Shown: positions 2,387 to 38,637, numbered from the stretch's first letter. The stretch: 64,000 bases of DNA from an uncultured Mycoplasmatota bacterium (GCA_947643405.1 CANRVY010000005.1:103-64102); one strand, 5' to 3'. Notes: generated from the letters alone by a model not told the origin. Program-made: numbers and translations.

Positions 2387-4039
2387 TTATACTTTAATTT
2401 TCTGAAAAGATGGCTCACTTTCTTTATAAGAAGTCAATAATTCTATCCTTGAATTGGCAACACTTCTATCAAATCCTGTTTGATAACGATTTTTTAATTT
2501 TTCAATATTTCTCCACAAAATTTGTTCCATTGAAACTCCTAATTCTATAGAGGAGATTCTAGATAAAGAAACCAATAAATTACTACTCATTTCTAATACT
2601 CTTTCTTTTTCACTTGCATAAATAATTTCGCAAGCGTAGCGGACTAAGCTTTTCCACTCATCTTCAAAAGAATACCCCCCTTTATTTAAATGGTCTAAAT
2701 ATGTGATTGGAATACCATTGTCAGAATATCCTTTTAAACATTCTGGATCTTTTCTTTTGACACTTTTTATCAATGCTTCATCTGTTATTGTTTCTAGCTT
2801 TTGCTTTCTCTCACCAAATAAATACATCCCAATATCTTCAAATTCAAATTGATAAAAACTGGATAGAGAAGCCGCTAAATACCATACAATATCGCCGATT
2901 TCTACTTGTAGATTTTGAAGGAGTTTTTGCTTACTTGTCTCATCTAAATTATGCGTTTTATATTTCTTAAAAGAATCAATTAATTCTCCTACCTCTCCTA
3001 TGATTCCCATTTCTCCATTCATTTTTTTTACAGAATCACTTGCAAAATGATTCATAGTTCTTTTCGCAAGTTCCCCATAATGCTTAAATGTAAGATTACT
3101 TTGTTCCATAAAGTCAACCATTTTTTGTCCCAAACATCCACCTTTGCAAATATCAAAATTAGAACAAGACATACATTCTCCATTTACACAAGTTTTAAAA
3201 TTACGGACATTGTTAAAATATTCTGAATCATAAATTTCTGCTAATGTATGTTCATAAATATTTCCTCCAAATCCTAAATAATCAAAATATTTCATAGCAT
3301 CACATGGATATACTCTTCCATCAAATCCTACTATCATCGTTTGTTCAGCAGCACTACAAGGAGTATGACTAATTCCTAGAAAATTCCAAGGACTTCCAAG
3401 CCTAATTTTTTCTCCGTATTTTTTTCTTAATTCTATGATTTTTTCTTTAAACCACAACAGCTCTTCTCTTGATAAAAGCAAATCTCTTGTTCCTCTTCCA
3501 TGTGGTACAAATCTTAAAAAAGATAAATTGGTAATTTGATTAGAAGACAATCCGAAAAATAATTTGGAGACATCATCAATATCGTGAACAGTTTCTGTTG
3601 TTATTGCATGATGAAAACCTAGCCTAATTCTTGCTTGCTTCAATAATTCAGGAAAAAAATCTTGAAGTCTTTCTAATGTTACAATATTATCTCTTGTCAA
3701 ATGATAAGTTGTTGAATATATCATTTCATCTAGTCCATATAAGACTAAATTTTTAATTTTGTTGATACTTTCTTGTTCTGGATTACACATAGTATAAAGT
3801 TTCGTTTTTAATCCATTTCTATGTGCTTCCGCAATTACTTCTTCAATATCTGGATATAAAGTTGCCTCTCCTCCAGTAAATACAATACTAGAAGCTTTTA
3901 ATAAGACCGCTTCATGAATCACTCTCTTTACAAGTTCTTTATCCAAATATTGGAAGTTAACCTCTTTTGCTTCACTTGAACAATGTGAACACCATCTTTT
4001 GCATTCTTCTGTCACTTCAATCTTTACTTCTTTTATCAT
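2387..4039 (-). CDS. Radical SAM enzyme with SPASM/twitch Cys-rich domain fused to a C-terminal tandem MazG-like NTP pyrophosphohydrolase-like region
   Basis: CX3CX2C (CKRWCSHC) near the N-terminus and a GGEATL SAM-binding motif. CX2CX5CX3C (CMSCSNFDICKGGC) SPASM-like motif. C-terminal EVGELIDSF...EIGDIVWYL and EQILWRNIEKLKNRY resemble MazG EExxE and KL.xR motifs. Confidence 0.6.
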   Translation of the reverse strand: MIKEVKIEVTEECKRWCSHCSSEAKEVNFQYLDKELVKRVIHEAVLLKASSIVFTGGEATLYPDIEEVIAEAHRNGLKTKLYTMCNPEQESINKIKNLVLYGLDEMIYSTTYHLTRDNIVTLERLQDFFPELLKQARIRLGFHHAITTETVHDIDDVSKLFFGLSSNQITNLSFLRFVPHGRGTRDLLLSREELLWFKEKIIELRKKYGEKIRLGSPWNFLGISHTPCSAAEQTMIVGFDGRVYPCDAMKYFDYLGFGGNIYEHTLAEIYDSEYFNNVRNFKTCVNGECMSCSNFDICKGGCLGQKMVDFMEQSNLTFKHYGELAKRTMNHFASDSVKKMNGEMGIIGEVGELIDSFKKYKTHNLDETSKQKLLQNLQVEIGDIVWYLAASLSSFYQFEFEDIGMYLFGERKQKLETITDEALIKSVKRKDPECLKGYSDNGIPITYLDHLNKGGYSFEDEWKSLVRYACEIIYASEKERVLEMSSNLLVSLSRISSIELGVSMEQILWRNIEKLKNRYQTGFDRSVANSRIELLTSYKESEPSFQKIKV

Positions 4040-4133
4040 ACTATCAAATTCCTTTCAAAATACTATTTATTATCATAGTTAAATATCCTTTATTTGTCAA
4101 GGAAATGTGTTATAATGAAGTGGGTGATAAAGC

Positions 4134-4712
4134 ATGCAAAGTATTAAAAATACAGTCTTAAATACCATAATCATTCAAAAATCAAAATTTATTTGTAAAC
4201 TAGTTTCTGTACAAAATATAGAAGAAATAAAACAAGAATTAGAACAGGTAAAAAAAGAATATCAAAACGCCACACATTACTGTTATGCTTATATTTGTAA
4301 CAATCATATTCATGCATCAGATAATGGAGAACCAAATGGAACTGCTGGTATGCCCATATTAAATGTACTTCAAAAACAAAATTTGAATTACATTCTTGCT
4401 ATTGTTATTCGCTATTTTGGCGGCATTAAATTAGGAGCTGGCGGTTTAGTACGTGCTTATTCTAATGCTACAGTAGAAGCATTAAAAAAAGCAACTTTTA
4501 TCAATTTTGTTCCAGGAAAGATTATCACTTGTACATTTTCTTATCAAGAAGAAAAACAAATGGAGCATTTATTATCTAATACCCAAATTATAGAAAAAAA
4601 ATATCAAGAACAAATTATGTATAAAGTAAAAATATCAAATGAAGAATTTGAAAAAATGAAAAATCAACTTCTGCATTTTCATATTGAAGAAGATATATTA
4701 ATTGCTAAATAA
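4134..4712 (+). CDS. yigZ: IMPACT/YigZ family protein (UPF0029)
   Basis: IxKSKF...HYCYAY...SDNGEPNGTAG.PIL.VL...RYFGGIKLGAGGLVRAY motif pattern typical of YigZ/IMPACT N-domain. Extended -10 (TGtTATAAT) just upstream. Confidence 0.75.
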   Translation: MQSIKNTVLNTIIIQKSKFICKLVSVQNIEEIKQELEQVKKEYQNATHYCYAYICNNHIHASDNGEPNGTAGMPILNVLQKQNLNYILAIVIRYFGGIKLGAGGLVRAYSNATVEALKKATFINFVPGKIITCTFSYQEEKQMEHLLSNTQIIEKKYQEQIMYKVKISNEEFEKMKNQLLHFHIEEDILIAK

Positions 4713-4783
4713 ATAACTTCGATTTGCAAAGTAAAATAAGCATTATTATTGACAAAAAAAAAGCACTATAGTACAATGTATAT

Positions 4784-4900
4784 AGATGAGGGAAACTTCA
4801 TATCATAAAAAGAGATACATTCTAATATTCCCATGTTAGGTGTTTACTCTAAATTTTGTTTTGAGAAAACACCAATTCAAAGCTGAGTTGGTGTTTTCTT
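4784..4900 (+). ncRNA. Candidate small RNA (copy A) of the repeated module. TTGACA-17-TACAAT promoter at 4749-4777, 5-prime hairpin, terminator hairpin AAAACACCAAUUCA-AAGC-UGAGUUGGUGUUUU plus U-tract. Convergent with and 3-prime-overlapping the small peptide ORF 4906..4974.
   Basis: Consensus promoter. Conserved in 4 copies in the window with compensatory changes in the 5-prime hairpin (ATGAGG-tttt-CCTCAT, ATGAGG-gaaa-CTTCAT, ATGAAGG-aaa-CCTCAT). Strong intrinsic terminator. Confidence 0.45.
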
Positions 4901-4905
4901 TTAAA

Positions 4906-4974
4906 TTAGTTCTTATTTTTAAGAACAATGATAGTGTAAAACACAATCATTGCAAATGCAACAATTAATTCCAA
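4906..4974 (-). CDS. Small hydrophobic peptide, type I toxin-like: (M/L)ELIVAFAMIVFYTIIVLKNKN, 22 aa, TTG start in this copy
   Basis: Paralogous to ORFs at 30559..30627 and 30946..31014 (MELIVIFITIVFYTVLVLKKKD). Differences between copies are conservative in this frame but non-conservative in the overlapping alternative frame. Single TM segment plus Lys-rich tail. TTGTAA-17-TATAAT promoter near 5087-5115 and GAGGTGA RBS upstream of an overlapping upstream frame. Confidence 0.4.
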   Translation of the reverse strand: MELIVAFAMIVFYTIIVLKNKN

Positions 4975-5192
4975 AAGAATTTATCCTTTCTATATTTCTT
5001 GCAAACATAGAAATCACCTCTTTTCTATCATCCTTTGATGAAGAATCGAGTAAAACACCTAACTACTAGAATAGTACCTCTATATTTATTATACATGGAA
5101 TATCTACATTTTACAATAGTATCTATCAAAATAGCCAAGTTTGTTATCTTCAAAAGATTGACAAAGAAAATATACTATAGTACAATGTATAT

Positions 5193-5300
5193 AGATGAAG
5201 GAAACCTCATATCATAAAAAAAGAGAAACACTCTGATATTTGTGTGTTAGATGTTTACTCTAAACAGTTGCTAAAGAAAAGAGTCTAATAAGACTCTTTT
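5193..5300 (+). ncRNA. Candidate small RNA (copy A-prime). TTGACA-17-TACAAT promoter at 5158-5186. Ends at the bidirectional terminator shared with the 5303..5824 gene. No adjacent peptide ORF.
   Basis: Sequence paralogous to 4749-4860 and 30403-30500. Terminator hairpin 5273-5304. Confidence 0.35.
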
Positions 5301-5304
5301 CTTT
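5273..5304. terminator. Bidirectional intrinsic terminator (AAAGAAAAGAGUCU-AAUA-AGACUCUUUUCUUU)
   Basis: Perfect hairpin flanked by A-run and T-run. Overlaps the stop codon of the 5303..5824 gene. Confidence 0.6.
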
Positions 5305-5824
5305 ATTGTAATTTTAATTTTTTTTCTTTACAAGCTTTTTTTGTTGCTTTATAACAAGCATCATAAGAAGCTTCTGCTTTTCCCATTCTTTCGGAACTAA
5401 TTCCATCTATAACACCATATTGTGAATAATATGGATTTTTGAGTTTTGATTTATCGAATAATTTTGAAAGCATTAGACTTGCTACTCCTACACCAATAAA
5501 AGTAAATTGAATTGGTTTCATATCCGTTCTACCATACCAATAAATAAGTGAAAATATACTAGGAATTAACATACCAACTCCAAAATTTTTAAACATTGTA
5601 ACAGAATTTACTTTTTGTCTTACACTAATACTACAAATTTTATATTCTAAATATCTTTCAACTTCATCATCTGAAAAACCTAATTTATCTTTTAAATAAG
5701 CTTTGTGATTTAATAATGCTACTTCTAAAATTGTTTTGGCATCTCTTGGAATTACAATATCAGATGGTTTTACCTCAATCTTTATTTTTTTCTTATCATA
5801 TGGACTTTTTGCATAAAATTTCAT
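5303..5824 (-). CDS. Hypothetical membrane protein (173 aa, two predicted TM segments in the C-terminal half)
   Basis: ORF with a TM-like segment and no recognisable motif. Confidence 0.5.
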   Translation of the reverse strand: MKFYAKSPYDKKKIKIEVKPSDIVIPRDAKTILEVALLNHKAYLKDKLGFSDDEVERYLEYKICSISVRQKVNSVTMFKNFGVGMLIPSIFSLIYWYGRTDMKPIQFTFIGVGVASLMLSKLFDKSKLKNPYYSQYGVIDGISSERMGKAEASYDACYKATKKACKEKKLKLQ

Positions 5825-5922: not shown

Positions 5923-7242
5923 TTAATCTTCTAAAGTTTCCTTTAATCTTTTTTCATATTCTGCTTGCAATACATAAATATCTTTACTACTCATAAATAG
6001 TAAAACCGCATTTTTATGCTTCAATAATTTATCGACTGTATCTAAAGAAATATATTCTCCATTATTTAATTTCTCTAAAATAACCTCATAAGTAACATCA
6101 TCATAACCAACTTCTTCACGATCTACTCCAACATCCATAATATAAGATTTATCAGCTAGATTAAGAGCTTCCGCAAACTCTTCTGCAAATTCTTTGGTTC
6201 TAGATAAAGTATGTGTTTTTAAAATGGCTACAATTTCTTTATCTGGATATTTTTGTTTGGCTGCCTTTATGGTTACTTTTACTTCTGTTGGATGATGAGC
6301 GTAATCATCAACTGTTACAATATCACCAATCACATTTTCCTTAAATCTTCTTTTGGCACCACCAAATGTTTTTAAATTTTTAGCAACTTCTTTTGCATCC
6401 ATTCTTTCATAGTAACAAACACCAATAACTGCTAACGCATTTAAAAGCATATGTTTTCCAAAAAGTGGTAAATCAAAATGTCCATAATAATTTCCTTCTA
6501 CAAAGACATCAAATTCAGTTCCATCATTACTGTATTCTACATCTTTCGCTAAAATATCGTTATCCTCTTTTAAACCATAATAGAAAATTGGAGGATTCAC
6601 GTCCAAAGTATGAGTATAGGGATCATCTCCACATGCAATTACCATTTTTTCTGCTTTATTTGCAAAACTTTGATAAGCATCTATAACATCATCAATATCT
6701 TTGTAATAATCAATATGATCTAACTCTATATTTGTAATGATTGCGTATGCTGGATCATAATCTAAAAAATGTCTTTTATATTCACAAGCTTCAAGAGCAA
6801 AATAAGAATTTTCTTTACTTGCTTTTCCTGACCCATCTCCAATTAAATAATTGCAACCAGTAATATTGGATAATACATGTGATAACATTGCTGTTGTCGT
6901 CGTTTTTCCATGGCATCCAGAAATTGCAATTGTTTTAAACATTCCTGTTAATCTTCCAACCATTTCTTGATAAGTATAAATTTTCAAATCTAATTCTTTA
7001 GCTTTTGCTACTTCTGGATTATGGTCATTAAATGCATTCCCTTGTACAATAATCATACCATCTTCTATATTCTTTTCATCAAAAGGAAGAATCCGAATAT
7101 TTTTTTCTAATAATGCGTCTTCTGTAAAAAAATGGTCTGGTTTGTCACTACCCTCTACTTCATATCCTAAATCATGCATAATTTGTGCTAATGCACTCAT
7201 GCCAGTCCCTTTTATTCCTATAAAATGATACATATTTTTCAT
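5923..7242 (-). CDS. murC: UDP-N-acetylmuramate--L-alanine ligase
   Basis: N-terminus HFIGIKGTGMSALAQIM..GYEVEGSD and ISGCHGKTTTTAML P-loop are typical of MurC. Length 439 aa. Confidence 0.9.
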   Translation of the reverse strand: MKNMYHFIGIKGTGMSALAQIMHDLGYEVEGSDKPDHFFTEDALLEKNIRILPFDEKNIEDGMIIVQGNAFNDHNPEVAKAKELDLKIYTYQEMVGRLTGMFKTIAISGCHGKTTTTAMLSHVLSNITGCNYLIGDGSGKASKENSYFALEACEYKRHFLDYDPAYAIITNIELDHIDYYKDIDDVIDAYQSFANKAEKMVIACGDDPYTHTLDVNPPIFYYGLKEDNDILAKDVEYSNDGTEFDVFVEGNYYGHFDLPLFGKHMLLNALAVIGVCYYERMDAKEVAKNLKTFGGAKRRFKENVIGDIVTVDDYAHHPTEVKVTIKAAKQKYPDKEIVAILKTHTLSRTKEFAEEFAEALNLADKSYIMDVGVDREEVGYDDVTYEVILEKLNNGEYISLDTVDKLLKHKNAVLLFMSSKDIYVLQAEYEKRLKETLED

Positions 7243-7265
7243 CTCCTATTACTATTATACTTCAT

Positions 7266-7970
7266 TTATCCCAAAAAATTAAGTAGAAATGGTCCTAAAA
7301 TAAGAATCATAATCAATGGTACCACAAATAATACTGATATTATACTTATTTTATTTGGGATTTTGTTAATTTGTCCTTTGATTTCTAATATTTGTTTATC
7401 TCTTAGAAACGCAATCTGATTATACATTGTATCCAAAATACTATTTCCAAAAATATTCGTTTGTGTAATATTTAAAATAATGTTATTAACAGTTTCTGAC
7501 GGAATTCTTTTTTTCATATCTTCTAATGCTTCTAATAAAGATTTTCCAAAATGAACTTCTAATAATGCTCTTTTAAATTCATCTGATAATTCTGACTTCA
7601 CATTAGCTACTGTAACTTCTAAAGAATTTTCAAGATTTCTTCCAGATTCTAAGGTCAAGGTTAAAATTTCAAAAAAATATAAAGCTTCATGATCAAGTTT
7701 TCGAATGCGCATCTTTAAGGGTTTTGTGATAATCAAATAATAGTATGCATAGTACCAACCAAGTGTAATCGCAGGTGCAAAAATATAAGCATGTTTTGAT
7801 TCATATAATACAACTAAAAATGCAATCAATGAAGAAAGCAATTGAAGATTAATGAATGCTGTTGCATCAAATTTTGATTTTCCACCTAGCATATCTATCT
7901 GCATTTGAATTCTATCTAAATCTTTTTCACGATAAATTTTTCGAATAATATTATTTCTCAAGCCCATCAC
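7266..7970 (-). CDS. Tad/Cpa pilus assembly inner-membrane protein, TadC-like (T2SSF domain)
   Basis: 234 aa with two terminal TM segments and a central soluble domain. Sits in the operon downstream of tadB/tadA homologues. Confidence 0.6.
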   Translation of the reverse strand: MMGLRNNIIRKIYREKDLDRIQMQIDMLGGKSKFDATAFINLQLLSSLIAFLVVLYESKHAYIFAPAITLGWYYAYYYLIITKPLKMRIRKLDHEALYFFEILTLTLESGRNLENSLEVTVANVKSELSDEFKRALLEVHFGKSLLEALEDMKKRIPSETVNNIILNITQTNIFGNSILDTMYNQIAFLRDKQILEIKGQINKIPNKISIISVLFVVPLIMILILGPFLLNFLG

Positions 7971-29678: not shown

Positions 29679-30406
29679 ATATTACAATTGCACATCTTTA
29701 TTATGATTTATTAAACTTATATGGAGAAAGTGGTAATGTGAAAGCTTTAAAATATGGTTTAGAAAGTCAAGGCATTCATGTTACAATCAAGTTTGCAACA
29801 ATTGGGGATGCATTAGACTTTGATTCTTATGATTTTATCTATATGGGCGCTGGAACAGAAGCCAATCAAAAATTAGCACTTCGCCACCTGATAAAATATA
29901 AGGATGATGTAAAAAAAGCAATTGAAATTGGTAAATTCTTTTTAATTACTGGAAATTCTTTAGAACTATTTGGAAAATGTATTATAGATAAGCACGAAAA
30001 GAGAACCAAAACATTACATGCTTTTGATTTTTATACAAAAGAGGAAAATTTTAGAATGGTTGATGAAGCACTTGTAAAAGCTGATTTTATGAAACCTTAT
30101 ATATTGGGTTTTCAAAATCAAGGAAGTGTTATTAAAAGTAATGAAAATATAATGTTTGAAGTCATAAAAGGAATTGGAAGTTTTCCAAATAGTAAAATAG
30201 AAGGAGTTCATAAAAATCATTTCTATGGAACTTATTTAATTGGTCCTATTCTAGTTCGAAATCCAGAGCTTTTAAAATATATGGTAAAAGAATTAATTTT
30301 AAGTAAAAATCCAGAGTTTAAATTTAAACGATTTAATCTAACTTTAGAAAATAAAGCTTATCATGAATTTATGAAAAATTACTATAAAGAATATATAGAA
30401 GTTTGA
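29675..30406 (+). CDS. gatD: Lipid II isoglutaminyl synthase glutaminase subunit GatD (CobQ-type glutamine amidotransferase)
   Basis: N-terminus MNITIAHLYYDLLNLYGESGNVKALKY is typical of GatD. Roughly 240 aa. Coupled to murT. Confidence 0.8.
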   Translation: MNITIAHLYYDLLNLYGESGNVKALKYGLESQGIHVTIKFATIGDALDFDSYDFIYMGAGTEANQKLALRHLIKYKDDVKKAIEIGKFFLITGNSLELFGKCIIDKHEKRTKTLHAFDFYTKEENFRMVDEALVKADFMKPYILGFQNQGSVIKSNENIMFEVIKGIGSFPNSKIEGVHKNHFYGTYLIGPILVRNPELLKYMVKELILSKNPEFKFKRFNLTLENKAYHEFMKNYYKEYIEV

Positions 30407-30437
30407 CAAAACAAAATTACTATAGTAGAATGTATAT

Positions 30438-30556
30438 AGATGAGGTTTTCCTCATAAAATAAAAAAAGAGATACACTCTGATATTGCGTGTTAGGTGTTA
30501 TCTCTATTCATTGAGTATCGAAAACACCTCTCATTGCTGATTGGTGTTTTCATTTT
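30438..30556 (+). ncRNA. Candidate small RNA (tandem copy 1)
   Basis: Promoter TTGACA at 30403-30408 and TAGAAT at 30426-30431. Hairpin AUGAGG-UUUU-CCUCAU. Terminator AAAACACC...GGUGUUUU plus U-tract. Confidence 0.4.
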
Positions 30557-30558
30557 AA

Positions 30559-30627
30559 TTAGTCCTTTTTCTTAAGAACTAGAACAGTATAAAATACTAT
30601 AGTTATAAATATAACTATTAATTCCAT
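30559..30627 (-). CDS. Small hydrophobic peptide MELIVIFITIVFYTVLVLKKKD (22 aa), type I toxin-like, tandem copy 1
   Basis: ATG with AAAGGA 9 nt upstream. An overlapping upstream ORF starts at the GAGGTGA RBS. TM segment plus KKKD tail. Conserved paralogues. Confidence 0.4.
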   Translation of the reverse strand: MELIVIFITIVFYTVLVLKKKD

Positions 30628-30824
30628 TGGAATTTGTCCTTTCTATAATCGTTTCAATCATAGAAATCACCTCTTCTCTATCATCTAGTGATGAAAGAAT
30701 AGAGTCTAAAAACACCTAACTATCAGAATTGTATCCATATATATCTATTATACAAGAGTATAATTATCATCGATATTTTTTTAGCTCATTTGACAAAACA
30801 AAATTACTATAGTAGAATGTATAT

Positions 30825-30943
30825 AGATGAGGTTTTCCTCATAAAATAAAAAAAGAGATACACTCTGATATTGCGTGTTAGGTGTTATCTCTATTCATTG
30901 AGTATCGAAAACACCTCTCATTGCTGATTGGTGTTTTCATTTT
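30825..30943 (+). ncRNA. Candidate small RNA (tandem copy 2)
   Basis: Promoter TTGACA at 30790-30795. Identical to copy 1. Confidence 0.4.
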
Positions 30944-30945
30944 AA

Positions 30946-31014
30946 TTAGTCCTTTTTCTTAAGAACTAGAACAGTATAAAATACTATAGTTATAAATATA
31001 ACTATTAATTCCAT
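30946..31014 (-). CDS. Small hydrophobic peptide MELIVIFITIVFYTVLVLKKKD (22 aa), tandem copy 2
   Basis: Identical to 30559..30627. Confidence 0.4.
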   Translation of the reverse strand: MELIVIFITIVFYTVLVLKKKD

Positions 31015-31182
31015 TGGAATTTGTCCTTTCTATAATCGTTTCAATCATAGAAATCACCTCTTCTCTATCATCTAGTGATGAAAGAATAGAGTTTAAAAAC
31101 ACCTAACTATCAGAATTGTATCCATATATATTATATATCATATATATCTATTATACAAGAGTGCTACTGAAAATTATTGAAT

Positions 31183-34654: not shown

Positions 34655-34885
34655 ATCCCTCCTAATAAAAAAATCACATCCAATAAGGACGTGATTTGAC
34701 GTGGTACCACCTTAATTTGTAGAACATTCTACCTTGAAACTGTAACGCGTTACCGTTATATGTTTTGCATATAAAACTCCAAGACGAATTCATAAATTGA
34801 TATCATCTATTTCCACCTACCATAGACTCTCTATTCATATCATCATTTATTACTACTTCTCTTCTTCGTTTTTCATAAACAAATT
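34655..34885 (-). promoter_or_regulatory. T-box riboswitch leader of pheST with TTGTAA-17-TACAAT promoter (34887-34915)
   Basis: Minus strand contains the AGAGAG box and the T-box sequence AAUUAAGGUGGUACCACG (UGGU bulge, N=U matching the tRNA-Phe discriminator A). Terminator AAAUCACGUCC...GGAUGUGAUUU plus U7 immediately before the RBS. Confidence 0.75.
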
Positions 34886-36512: not shown

Positions 36513-37399
36513 TATTTTTTTTCTTTTAACATTTCACTAATTGTGGTTCCAATGGTTGCTATATTTTGTAGTTCTGACGGAACAATAATCTTCGTTGCTT
36601 GACCATTTGCAACCGTTTCTAATGCTTCAAAGCTTTTAAGTGTTAAAACAGAAGAGTCAGCTTTTGCTTCCTTTAATAAACGAATTCCTTCTGCCTCTGC
36701 TGTTTTTAATTTGATAATCGCTTCTGCTTCTCCTTCAGCTTTTTTGATTTTTGATTCTTTATCTGCTTCGGCTCTTAAAATGGCACTTTCTTTTTCTCCT
36801 TCAGCAATTAAAATACTAGATTTTTTTTCTCCTTCTGCTTGAAGAATTTTTTCTCTTCTTTCACGTTCTGCTCTCATTTGTTTTTCCATTGCTTCTTGAA
36901 TATCTCTTGGTGGAATGATATTTTTCACTTCAACACGATTTACTTTAATGCCCCATGGGTCTGTTGCTTCATCTAAAATAGAACGCATTTTAGAATTGAT
37001 AATATCTCTAGATGTCAAGGTTTGGTCTAATTCTAGCTCTCCAATAATATTACGTAATGTTGTTGCTGTTAAGTTTTCAATCGCACTAATTGGATTTTCT
37101 ACTCCATAAGTATATAATTTTGCATCTGTAATTTGAAAATATACTACAGTATCTATTTGCATTGTTACATTATCTTTTGTAATAACAGGCTGTGGGTCAA
37201 AATCTTTTACGATTTCTTTTAAAATGACTTGATTGGCTATCCTGTCTAAAAAAGGCAATTTAAAATGCAATCCATTTTTCCATGTTGTATAATAAGAACC
37301 TACTCTTTCAATAACATACGTTTTTGCTTGTGGCACAATTTTCACATTTGGCACAATTAGAACAATAGCAAGTATTAAAATAACAATTAAAAATTCCAT
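36512..37399 (-). CDS. SPFH/Band 7 (stomatin/flotillin-like) family protein
   Basis: N-terminal TM segment and SPFH core (VIERVGSYYTTW... QIDTVVYFQITD). C-terminal Ala/Glu/Lys coiled-coil repeats. Confidence 0.75.
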   Translation of the reverse strand: MEFLIVILILAIVLIVPNVKIVPQAKTYVIERVGSYYTTWKNGLHFKLPFLDRIANQVILKEIVKDFDPQPVITKDNVTMQIDTVVYFQITDAKLYTYGVENPISAIENLTATTLRNIIGELELDQTLTSRDIINSKMRSILDEATDPWGIKVNRVEVKNIIPPRDIQEAMEKQMRAERERREKILQAEGEKKSSILIAEGEKESAILRAEADKESKIKKAEGEAEAIIKLKTAEAEGIRLLKEAKADSSVLTLKSFEALETVANGQATKIIVPSELQNIATIGTTISEMLKEKK

Positions 37400-38346: not shown

Positions 38347-38637
38347 ACTTTCACCTCATTTATAGAATGGCACTTTTTTAAAAAAATAATCTTTTATTTG
38401 ACAAAAAGAATTCTTTATGCTAGAATTAGTCCTAATCGAAAGAGGTTGCGAAACTTATTATTATTTAACAATTACTCAGATTATTGTTGTTAAAGAAAGG
38501 AAGTTTTGCCGAAATAAAACAAGATATCTGAATCTTGCTTTATTGGGACAGCTACATAATATGGGCTGGACTGTCACAAGAGAAACTTGTGGAGTGCTTT
38601 CAAAATTATTATCATAGAAATGATTTTCTATTTTTAA

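Follow-up and report, generated by a model that had tools for sequence, protein, structure and literature searches.

The stretch of DNA considered here (the window, 64,000 nt in length with a G+C content of 28.5%, in which positions are counted from the first letter of the whole stretch) comes from an uncultured Mycoplasmatota bacterium (GCA_947643405.1, CANRVY010000005.1:103-64102) and carries four copies, designated A, A', B1 and B2, of a gene for a small RNA (sRNA). Copies A, B1 and B2 each face a convergent 22-codon open reading frame (ORF) that encodes a hydrophobic peptide, and the sRNA gene and the ORF together form a module whose architecture, variation and probable role as a type I toxin-antitoxin-like pair are the subject of the present work. 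A preliminary description of this DNA had proposed that the module recurs within the window. This is borne out by direct-repeat families that connect positions 4745-4831 (A), 5154-5240 (A'), 30399-30485 (B1) and 30786-30872 (B2) with identities of 78-100%, by the tandem arrangement of B1 and B2 with a 387-bp period, 300 nt of which are 100% identical, and by the 24-mer CTATAGTANAATGTATATAGATGA, which runs from the -10 box through the transcript start and occurs four times in the window against zero occurrences expected in shuffled sequences.

The module in the window

Copy A is flanked by a UPF0029/YigZ gene and an ORF of 173 amino acids, and the B1/B2 pair is located between murT-gatD and pheT. 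Relatives of the module were collected in one scan of a genome collection and one scan of metagenomes, using patterns for the promoter and transcript start (+1), and a covariance model built from ten core copies (CM R1) found 21 copies, those in the window included. A promoter scan recovered the near-consensus sigma-A-like promoters previously described for all four sRNAs and that of the copy A peptide gene, and the peptide ORFs of A, B1 and B2 have the coordinates, the sequences and, in copy A, the TTG start that had been ascribed to them. The features of copy A are as follows.

4749..4777, plus strand: promoter of sRNA A, TTGACA-17-TACAAT (promoter scan; kept in all relatives)
4784..4902, plus strand: sRNA A, about 119 nt, comprising hairpin P1, an A-rich linker, hairpin P2 and terminator T (CM R1 121 bits; fold z-score -6.55; covariation)
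4865..4898, both strands: terminator hairpin of copy A, bidirectional and shared, GAAAACACC...GGUGUUUUC, where sRNA and mRNA are complementary (double changes across copies at 8 of 12 helix pairs)
4906..4974, minus strand: hydrophobic 22-codon ORF of copy A, TTG start, LELIVAFAMIVFYTIIVLKNKN (purifying selection in this frame)
4919..5008, minus strand: overlapping leader ORF of copy A, 29 codons, with a strong Shine-Dalgarno (SD) sequence, GAGGTGA, at 5014-5020 (without protein-level selection)
4967..5013, minus strand: hairpin HP-A (4987-5013), which buries the leader start codon AUG1 and half of the second SD sequence (SD2, GAAAGGA), and hairpin HP-B (4967-4981), which holds the peptide start codon (folding, covariation)
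5048..5080, minus strand: P2', the 5'-terminal hairpin of the copy A peptide mRNA, which repeats sRNA hairpin P2 in the same sense
5088..5116, minus strand: promoter of the copy A peptide mRNA, TTGTAA-17-TATAAT (promoter scan; position conserved in relatives)

The tandem pair carries the corresponding elements, with the B1 peptide promoter 19 nt shorter than that of B2.

30403..30431, plus strand: promoter of sRNA B1, TTGACA-17-TAGAAT (promoter scan)
30438..30556, plus strand: sRNA B1 (CM R1; fold z-score -6.13)
30559..30627, minus strand: hydrophobic 22-codon ORF B1, MELIVIFITIVFYTVLVLKKKD (purifying selection in this frame)
30572..30661, minus strand: leader ORF of B1, with its SD sequence (SD1) at 30667-30673, HP-A at 30640-30666 and HP-B at 30620-30634
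30790..30818, plus strand: promoter of sRNA B2, TTGACA-17-TAGAAT (promoter scan)
30825..30943, plus strand: sRNA B2 (CM R1)
30946..31014, minus strand: hydrophobic 22-codon ORF B2, MELIVIFITIVFYTVLVLKKKD (ORF search)
30899..31123, minus strand: predicted peptide mRNA of B2, about 225 nt, with its terminator at 30907-30938 (fold z-score -6.84)
Parts of the B2 mRNA, minus strand: P2' 31089-31123, SD1 31054-31060, HP-A 31027-31053, SD2 31024-31030, HP-B 31007-31021
31130..31158, minus strand: promoter of the B2 peptide mRNA, TTGTAT-17-TATAAT (read from the sequence, the -35 box being too weak for the promoter scan)

A conserved structured RNA

All copies of the sRNA fold alike: P1 and the long P2 are separated by an A-rich single-stranded linker, and a short linker leads from P2 to T. 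Fold z-scores are -5.9 to -6.6 relative to shuffled sequences. Across 18 distinct sequences, pairing is present in 96.8% of the alignment cells and 16 of the 29 pairs are changed on both sides, whereas slid controls show 39-49% pairing and at most four doubly changed pairs; the alignment was fitted to the CM structure and so favours it, but the contrast with the controls is nonetheless large. This alignment, obtained with a CM from the core family followed by realignment, replaced a MAFFT alignment of all classes for which RNAalifold returned no structure because the hairpins had been misaligned. Compensatory changes in the 5' hairpin had been reported between the copies of the window, where the differences in fact amount to one G-U wobble and one A-C mismatch; true double changes do appear once the relatives are added. 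The terminator had been called strong and intrinsic, and folding and covariation support the hairpin that the A and B copies have in common, although a simple terminator scan called that of A' only.

The promoter region contains a 20-mer, TAGTAnAATGTATATAGATG, which spans the -10 box, the discriminator, +1 and the start of P1 and is found at 4769-4788, 5178-5197, 30423-30442 and 30810-30829 as well as in relatives. It is identical across classes of relatives that are otherwise unalignable, an identity that is partly due to ascertainment, the 20-mer having served as a search pattern. It also holds a CTATA...TATAG inverted repeat, which could be an operator.

The view that the sRNA is autonomous, being neither a riboswitch nor the leader of a flanking gene, stands. 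No Rfam family was matched at gathering level in either region, and the sRNA did not match RatA (RF01776) at E values up to 10; downstream of the plus-strand RNA lie only antisense DNA and convergent genes, and since no co-directional gene follows it, the RNA is not a leader.

Selection on the peptide

The ORF on the opposite strand specifies a peptide of 21-22 residues with one short hydrophobic helix and a Lys/Asn/Asp tail. Among 11 distinct core-family sequences, the nonsynonymous and synonymous rates (dN and dS) in this frame are 0.21 and 0.75, with 11, 4 and 13 variable sites at the three codon positions, against 0.30 and 0.30 in the overlapping frame. The hydrophobic frame is the selected product and is under purifying selection, which places the earlier argument from conservative substitutions on a quantitative footing.

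The overlapping leader frame is open for 29 codons in all intact copies, from a strong SD-ATG (GAGGTGA-N5-ATG) to the point where Leu-Lys (CTT AAR) makes TAA. It stays open in 100% of synonymous recodings of the peptide, as against at most 1.5% for the third frame; because the codons for hydrophobic residues cannot create stops in the leader frame, its openness is no evidence of selection. A role for the 29-codon frame as a second selected product was accordingly rejected, the frame being forced open in this way and having a dN/dS of about 1.

Layout of the peptide mRNA

The peptide mRNA is predicted to be about 220 nt in length. Its TATAAT promoters are conserved, and the predicted +1 falls 7 nt past TATAAT, at the base of P2'. 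The elements that follow are, in order, a variable hairpin (HP-0), SD1/AUG1, HP-A, SD2, HP-B, the ORF and the terminator. HP-A has the form UUUCUAUGnnn / nnnUAUAGAAA, and the first four bases of SD2 (GAAAGGA) lie within it; its 11 bp are 100% paired among seven distinct sequences, in which two pairs are changed on both sides, so that the covariation support, from a small sample, is modest. HP-B (AAUUCC / GGAAUU) contains the ATG or TTG start of the peptide, which in one relative (L013) is buried by another hairpin. Two mRNAs gave fold z-scores of -6.8 and -5.0 relative to shuffles. SD1-AUG1 is conserved in all intact copies, and the long leader frame has been lost in two copies in which the peptide ORF is intact (L020 and L003b, the latter having lost its promoter too). 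The first account of this 5' region had identified the promoter correctly but under-weighted the strong upstream SD-ATG and the hairpins that bury the peptide start.

Complementarity between the two RNAs

The two predicted transcripts run towards each other into a single bidirectional terminator, which makes their 3' ends perfectly complementary. This shared terminator region of about 45-50 nt is the only long complementarity between sRNA and mRNA, and the sRNA 3' end lies 3 nt from the peptide stop codon. When the sRNA was compared with the SD1/AUG1 and peptide start regions, no conserved pairing to either was found, nor was there conserved pairing between the 5' parts of the two RNAs. A 5' duplex between them was tried by unconstrained duplex folding and rejected, the result being long, loop-ridden duplexes with insignificant z-scores.

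The sRNA could also pair with the mRNA 5' end over 8-13 bp. The 3' strand of P2, the 3' arm of the terminator and the mRNA 5' hairpin have 7-13 nt in common within a module and 4-5 nt across classes, and such a within-module motif is seen in three sequence-unrelated classes (GGUGUUUU, AAGCGUU and UUGAGUACU). These comparisons used exact shared substrings, which did discriminate, whereas a helix cross-matrix permitting G-U pairs was undiscriminating in AT-rich sequence. Each of the three can pair with the terminator 5' arms, so that the 5' end of the mRNA might bind either the 3' end of the same molecule or the terminator arm of the sRNA; alternatively, the three same-sense elements may constitute a shared protein-binding hairpin.

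Relatives, copy number and decay

The module was recovered in four metagenome-assembled genomes (MAGs) and in several metagenome contigs; 7 of the 17 metagenome matches were chance matches in coding DNA. The window belongs to an uncultured, low-GC Bacilli lineage of gut type, and the close relatives from the genome-collection scan are MAGs that carry the label 'uncultured Tenericutes bacterium' or 'Bacilli bacterium'. The module occupies at least three contexts, syntenic or unrelated: synteny with the gatD-pheT copy holds for L001, L002, L003 and L006, synteny with the yigZ copy for L004, and the other loci lie in unrelated contexts. Among strains whose GatD is identical, L034 has one copy and L033, L036 and the window have two, although the low-coverage contig with one copy may be a collapsed tandem repeat. 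Five of the eight assemblies L033-L040 break about 25 nt past gatD, the usual signature of a multi-copy repeat in short-read assembly.

Two copies, A' and L019, are orphan sRNAs that lack a peptide gene and have an intact promoter, P1 and P2. Copy A', which had been described as an sRNA without a peptide and proves to be one, comprises two features.

5158..5186, plus strand: promoter of orphan sRNA A', TTGACA-17-TACAAT (promoter scan)
5193..5304, plus strand: orphan sRNA A', with P1 and P2 kept and another terminator at 5272-5305 (CM R1 76.9 bits)

The A' terminator is bidirectional, differs from that of the A and B copies, and is common to the convergent 173-residue ORF (5303..5824, minus strand), whose product is membrane-like and belongs to no Pfam family. 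Copy A' and this ORF are both missing from the syntenic yigZ-murC interval of L004 and seem to have been gained or lost jointly; A' may be a 3' antisense RNA to the ORF gene.

A second class, represented by L012 (1121-1850), L015 (about 7200-7660) and L018 (about 4100-4540), shares the promoter/+1 20-mer of the sRNA and its three-hairpin fold, has another terminator sequence, and faces a 29-residue peptide, MKKKDLLIVFLILIIILLIVSLMILCIKK, directly behind GGAGG and without a leader ORF; in L012 the module is in tandem with a 356-nt period. Throughout the intact copies, the divergent class of L012 included, the terminator is common to a hydrophobic ORF. A further sRNA-like class (L008, 8067-8195, minus strand, and L023) has P1 AUGGAA/UUCCAU and the P2 base AUGG/CCAU; its candidate peptide, MIKILNNIILILFLLLLLVAEIKK, has a TTG start and no SD.

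Proposed mechanism

Each unit is probably a chromosomal type I toxin-antitoxin-like pair of the 3'-overlap kind, a reading to which a probability of roughly 0.65 is assigned. From the sequence we infer the transcription of both RNAs, the toxicity of the peptide, the antitoxin action of the sRNA, the participating nuclease and the function of the leader ORF. In this mechanism, a constitutive-looking promoter would drive the non-coding RNA of about 119 nt with P1, P2 and T, and the promoter on the opposite strand would drive the mRNA of about 220 nt for the peptide of 21-22 residues. The sRNA would pair with the 3' untranslated region of the peptide mRNA, probably beginning loop-to-loop at the terminator hairpins, by analogy with txpA/RatA, bsrG/SR4, bsrE/SR5 and yonT/SR6, and the resulting duplex would target the mRNA for RNase III-type cleavage and decay. 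Translation would in addition be throttled in cis, the weak SD (GAAAGGA) and the ATG or TTG start being closed in the two conserved hairpins, and translation from the upstream SD-AUG might either unfold these hairpins, in a mok/hok-like coupling, or occlude the peptide start. The tandem amplification, strain-level copy variation, orphan sRNAs and decayed peptide copies are dynamics typical of toxin-antitoxin loci.

Several points weigh against this interpretation. The sRNA has no match in any Rfam family and the peptide none in Pfam or NCBIfam; the hydrophobic core of the peptide is only about 16 residues long; the predicted overlap of about 45-50 nt is shorter than that of RatA or SR4 (more than 100 nt); and, when read in the direction of the mRNA, the terminator has a weak U-tract (UUUUC followed by mixed sequence). 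The fitting of the covariation alignment to the model and the possible collapse of the one-copy contig, both noted above, belong to the same side of the balance.

Comparison with known systems

The module is best read as a new family of a known kind, the 3'-overlap type I toxin-antitoxin system, matching no described family. As had been proposed, a 3'-overlapping convergent pair fits the architecture of txpA/RatA and bsrG/SR4 (PMC6562991). In those two systems and in bsrE/SR5, pairing of the antitoxin with the 3' part of the toxin mRNA promotes decay, RNase III cleavage has been shown for yonT/SR6, and 3'-end pairing that promotes decay is found in every type I system of B. subtilis that has been studied (PMC6562991). 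The 3'-overlap toxin mRNAs of B. subtilis sequester their SD sequences, and SR4 also remodels the SD helix (PMC6562991, PMC3834814). Like txpA/RatA, bsrG/SR4, bsrE/SR5, bsrH/as-bsrH and yonT/SR6, the module combines convergent RNAs that have complementary 3' ends with a hydrophobic peptide, a basic tail and a sequestered SD; unlike the B. subtilis systems, it has an overlap limited to the terminator (about 45-50 nt as against more than 100 nt), a peptide of 21-22 rather than 29-59 residues, and loci that are chromosomal and intergenic instead of lying in prophage or skin elements. To our knowledge, a length of 21-22 residues places the peptide among the shortest candidate toxins in Firmicutes.

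A second comparison concerns the Hol-Tox/rli28 loci. On Listeria plasmids, rli28 overlaps a BsrH-like toxin ORF with a convergent RatA beside it (PMC9484302), and the plasmid pLI100 (L024), used as a positive control, gave 163 bits for rli28 and 49 bits for RatA and has its peptide in Pfam Hol_Tox. Against that family (PF16935), the peptides of the module had no match at E values up to 10, while the Listeria peptide scored 38.5 bits. A profile of the module peptides, compared by hhalign with a profile of Hol-Tox peptides gathered from plasmid loci of Listeria, Enterococcus, Latilactobacillus and Lactococcus, gave a probability of 16% and a P value of 0.0016. The rli28 model (RF01492) scored 21-23 bits (E 1.6-3) on the mRNA strand, the expected one, and at the expected place in each of the three copies, below its gathering score of 45, and a CM of eight Hol-Tox leaders found no match in 178 kb by default and, with filters off, reached 8.8 bits at the right place. 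To inspection the two kinds of locus look alike in the layout of the leader, which has the form GAGGUGAU-N4/5-AUG, a hairpin with CUAUG/(U)AUAG, GAAAGGA, an ATG or TTG start, and they have in common a convergent antisense RNA at the 3' end and, with the A-type peptides, an (I/V)AFA(T/M)(L/I)V block. They differ in that the module lacks the outer GGGGUGA/UACCCC helix of rli28, that its sRNA bears no relation to RatA, and that its leader ORF runs through the peptide ORF, whereas the Hol-Tox leader ORF stops at or beside the toxin start. The likenesses leave it conceivable, if doubtful, that the module is a distant, miniaturised relative of the Hol-Tox/rli28 loci; because the statistics are not significant, it is not filed in that family. 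If the link is real, the conserved leader with two start sites would represent a means of control that has been overlooked in a plasmid toxin family of wide distribution.

In the plasmid loci themselves (L024, 515-556; L025, L027 and L028, about 290-353), a short ORF behind GAGGUGAUgccuAUG is separated from the toxin start that follows by 0-2 nt, or overlaps with it (ATGA). The arrangement resembles termination-reinitiation coupling, of which no account was found in the cited literature on these loci.

In par of pAD1, convergent transcripts have a common bidirectional terminator, at which their interaction is thought to start (PMC7472228). The module resembles par (fst RNA I/RNA II) in this terminator, and the analogy with fst/RNAII drawn in the preliminary description does not extend further: the direct repeats of par give the two RNAs complementary 5' regions, which blocks the ribosome site of fst, whereas the repeats here are inverted and same-sense and there is no conserved start-region pairing. 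With respect to Fst/Ldr, a Pfam search of the peptide gave no Fst match.

Two other arrangements are similar in design. In hok/mok/sok of plasmid R1, an upstream frame with a better ribosome site overlaps most of the toxin ORF, and Sok pairs at the mok start region, at the 5' end. The module likewise has an overlapping leader frame with a better SD, a structurally closed toxin start and possible 5'-3' complementarity within the mRNA, but its sRNA pairs at the 3' end and not at the leader-ORF start, and there is no sequence relation. Ibs/Sib of E. coli comprises hydrophobic toxins of 18-19 residues in multiple tandem chromosomal copies, with Sib fully antisense to the ibs ORF; the very short hydrophobic peptide and the multiple tandem chromosomal copies recur here, in another phylum, without sequence relation and with an sRNA that is not fully antisense to the ORF.

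A variant of the proposed mechanism, considered unlikely, would set the module apart in its mode of action as well as in sequence: the peptide would be translated only behind leader ribosomes that melt HP-A and HP-B, and the mRNA 5' hairpin would mimic the terminator arm of the antitoxin, so that the mRNA closes 5' to 3' or the sRNA clamps both of its ends. We know of no description of mok/hok-type coupling for Gram-positive type I systems. If this variant is true, leader coupling may exist in another form in Hol-Tox/rli28 mRNAs, and 5' hairpin mimicry would account for the three same-sense elements that co-vary between classes.

Alternative readings

The strongest competitor, though an unlikely one, is that the peptide gene encodes a benign small membrane protein tuned by a cis-antisense regulator, with no toxin-antitoxin relationship. 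Purifying selection and the 3' overlap would fit it equally, and the very short peptide, with its core of about 16 residues and no toxin-family match, is in keeping with it. It accounts poorly for a locus that is multi-copy, tandem and variable between strains, with orphans and decayed copies, since these are typical of toxin-antitoxin loci and not of housekeeping small proteins; the heavy sequestration of the peptide start and a leader layout that looks like that of Hol-Tox toxin mRNAs also speak against it.

Distinctly improbable is the reading in which the sRNA is the main product and acts in trans through its A-rich linker or P2, the peptide gene being secondary or a passenger. Such a role would explain why the orphans A' and L019 keep promoter, P1 and P2, why A' is convergent to another gene, and why the promoter/+1 20-mer is identical in unalignable classes, but the last of these is partly ascertainment, the peptide ORF is kept, with a coding pattern of substitution, in 12 distinct sequences, and in every intact copy, even in the divergent class of L012, a hydrophobic ORF has its terminator in common with the sRNA.

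A very low probability is assigned to the idea that the plus-strand RNA is an attenuator in which GGUGUU acts as an antiterminator and regulated read-through is antisense to the whole peptide ORF. The preliminary description had raised this antiterminator on the strength of a 7-bp GGUGUU(U)/AAACACC complementarity, present in A and B; the 3' strand of P2 moreover resembles the terminator 3' arm in three classes, and read-through forms exist for SR6 of B. subtilis (PMC6562991). However, GGUGUU is the 3' strand of P2 and covaries there with the 5' strand (ACAC/GUGU to ACAU/AUGU), and A', L003, L016, L019 and L020 show a degraded match between this strand and the terminator arm, which together make the idea weak; Rfam contains no riboswitch or leader that matches, and no conserved loop resembling a ligand pocket was found.

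Equally remote is the reading of the unit as a miniature mobile element with inverted repeats at its ends, in which ORF and RNA would be incidental: the imperfect inverted repeats around the peptide gene are real and several genomic contexts and a tandem duplication are on record, but the repeat arms are transcribed hairpins that begin exactly at the predicted mRNA +1 and covary with the terminator, convergent transcription through inverted repeats giving the two RNAs the same, not complementary, sequence, plasmids and phages gave no blastn match to the 387-bp unit, and no target-site duplications were noticed, without a systematic search for them. A scan of viral contigs gave a single match, in coding DNA, which was judged to be due to chance.

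Under the toxin-antitoxin reading, the family brings with it an antitoxin CM and a set of naturally occurring variants, namely orphans, decayed copies and a second class of toxin that has the sRNA promoter in common with the first, that make questions of structure and function directly testable.

Other features of the window

Two known regulatory RNAs score above their Rfam gathering scores, a T-box leader at 34682-34875 on the minus strand (113.5 bits) and a lysine riboswitch at 38432-38607 on the plus strand (110.2 bits). At 36689-36872, a 52-nt unit occurs five times at 33-nt spacing with 63-100% identity, and is probably a periodic coding repeat of the minus strand. An ORF of 550 amino acids at 2387-4039 on the minus strand has at its start the motif CX3CX2C (CKRWCSHC), which is characteristic of radical-SAM enzymes.

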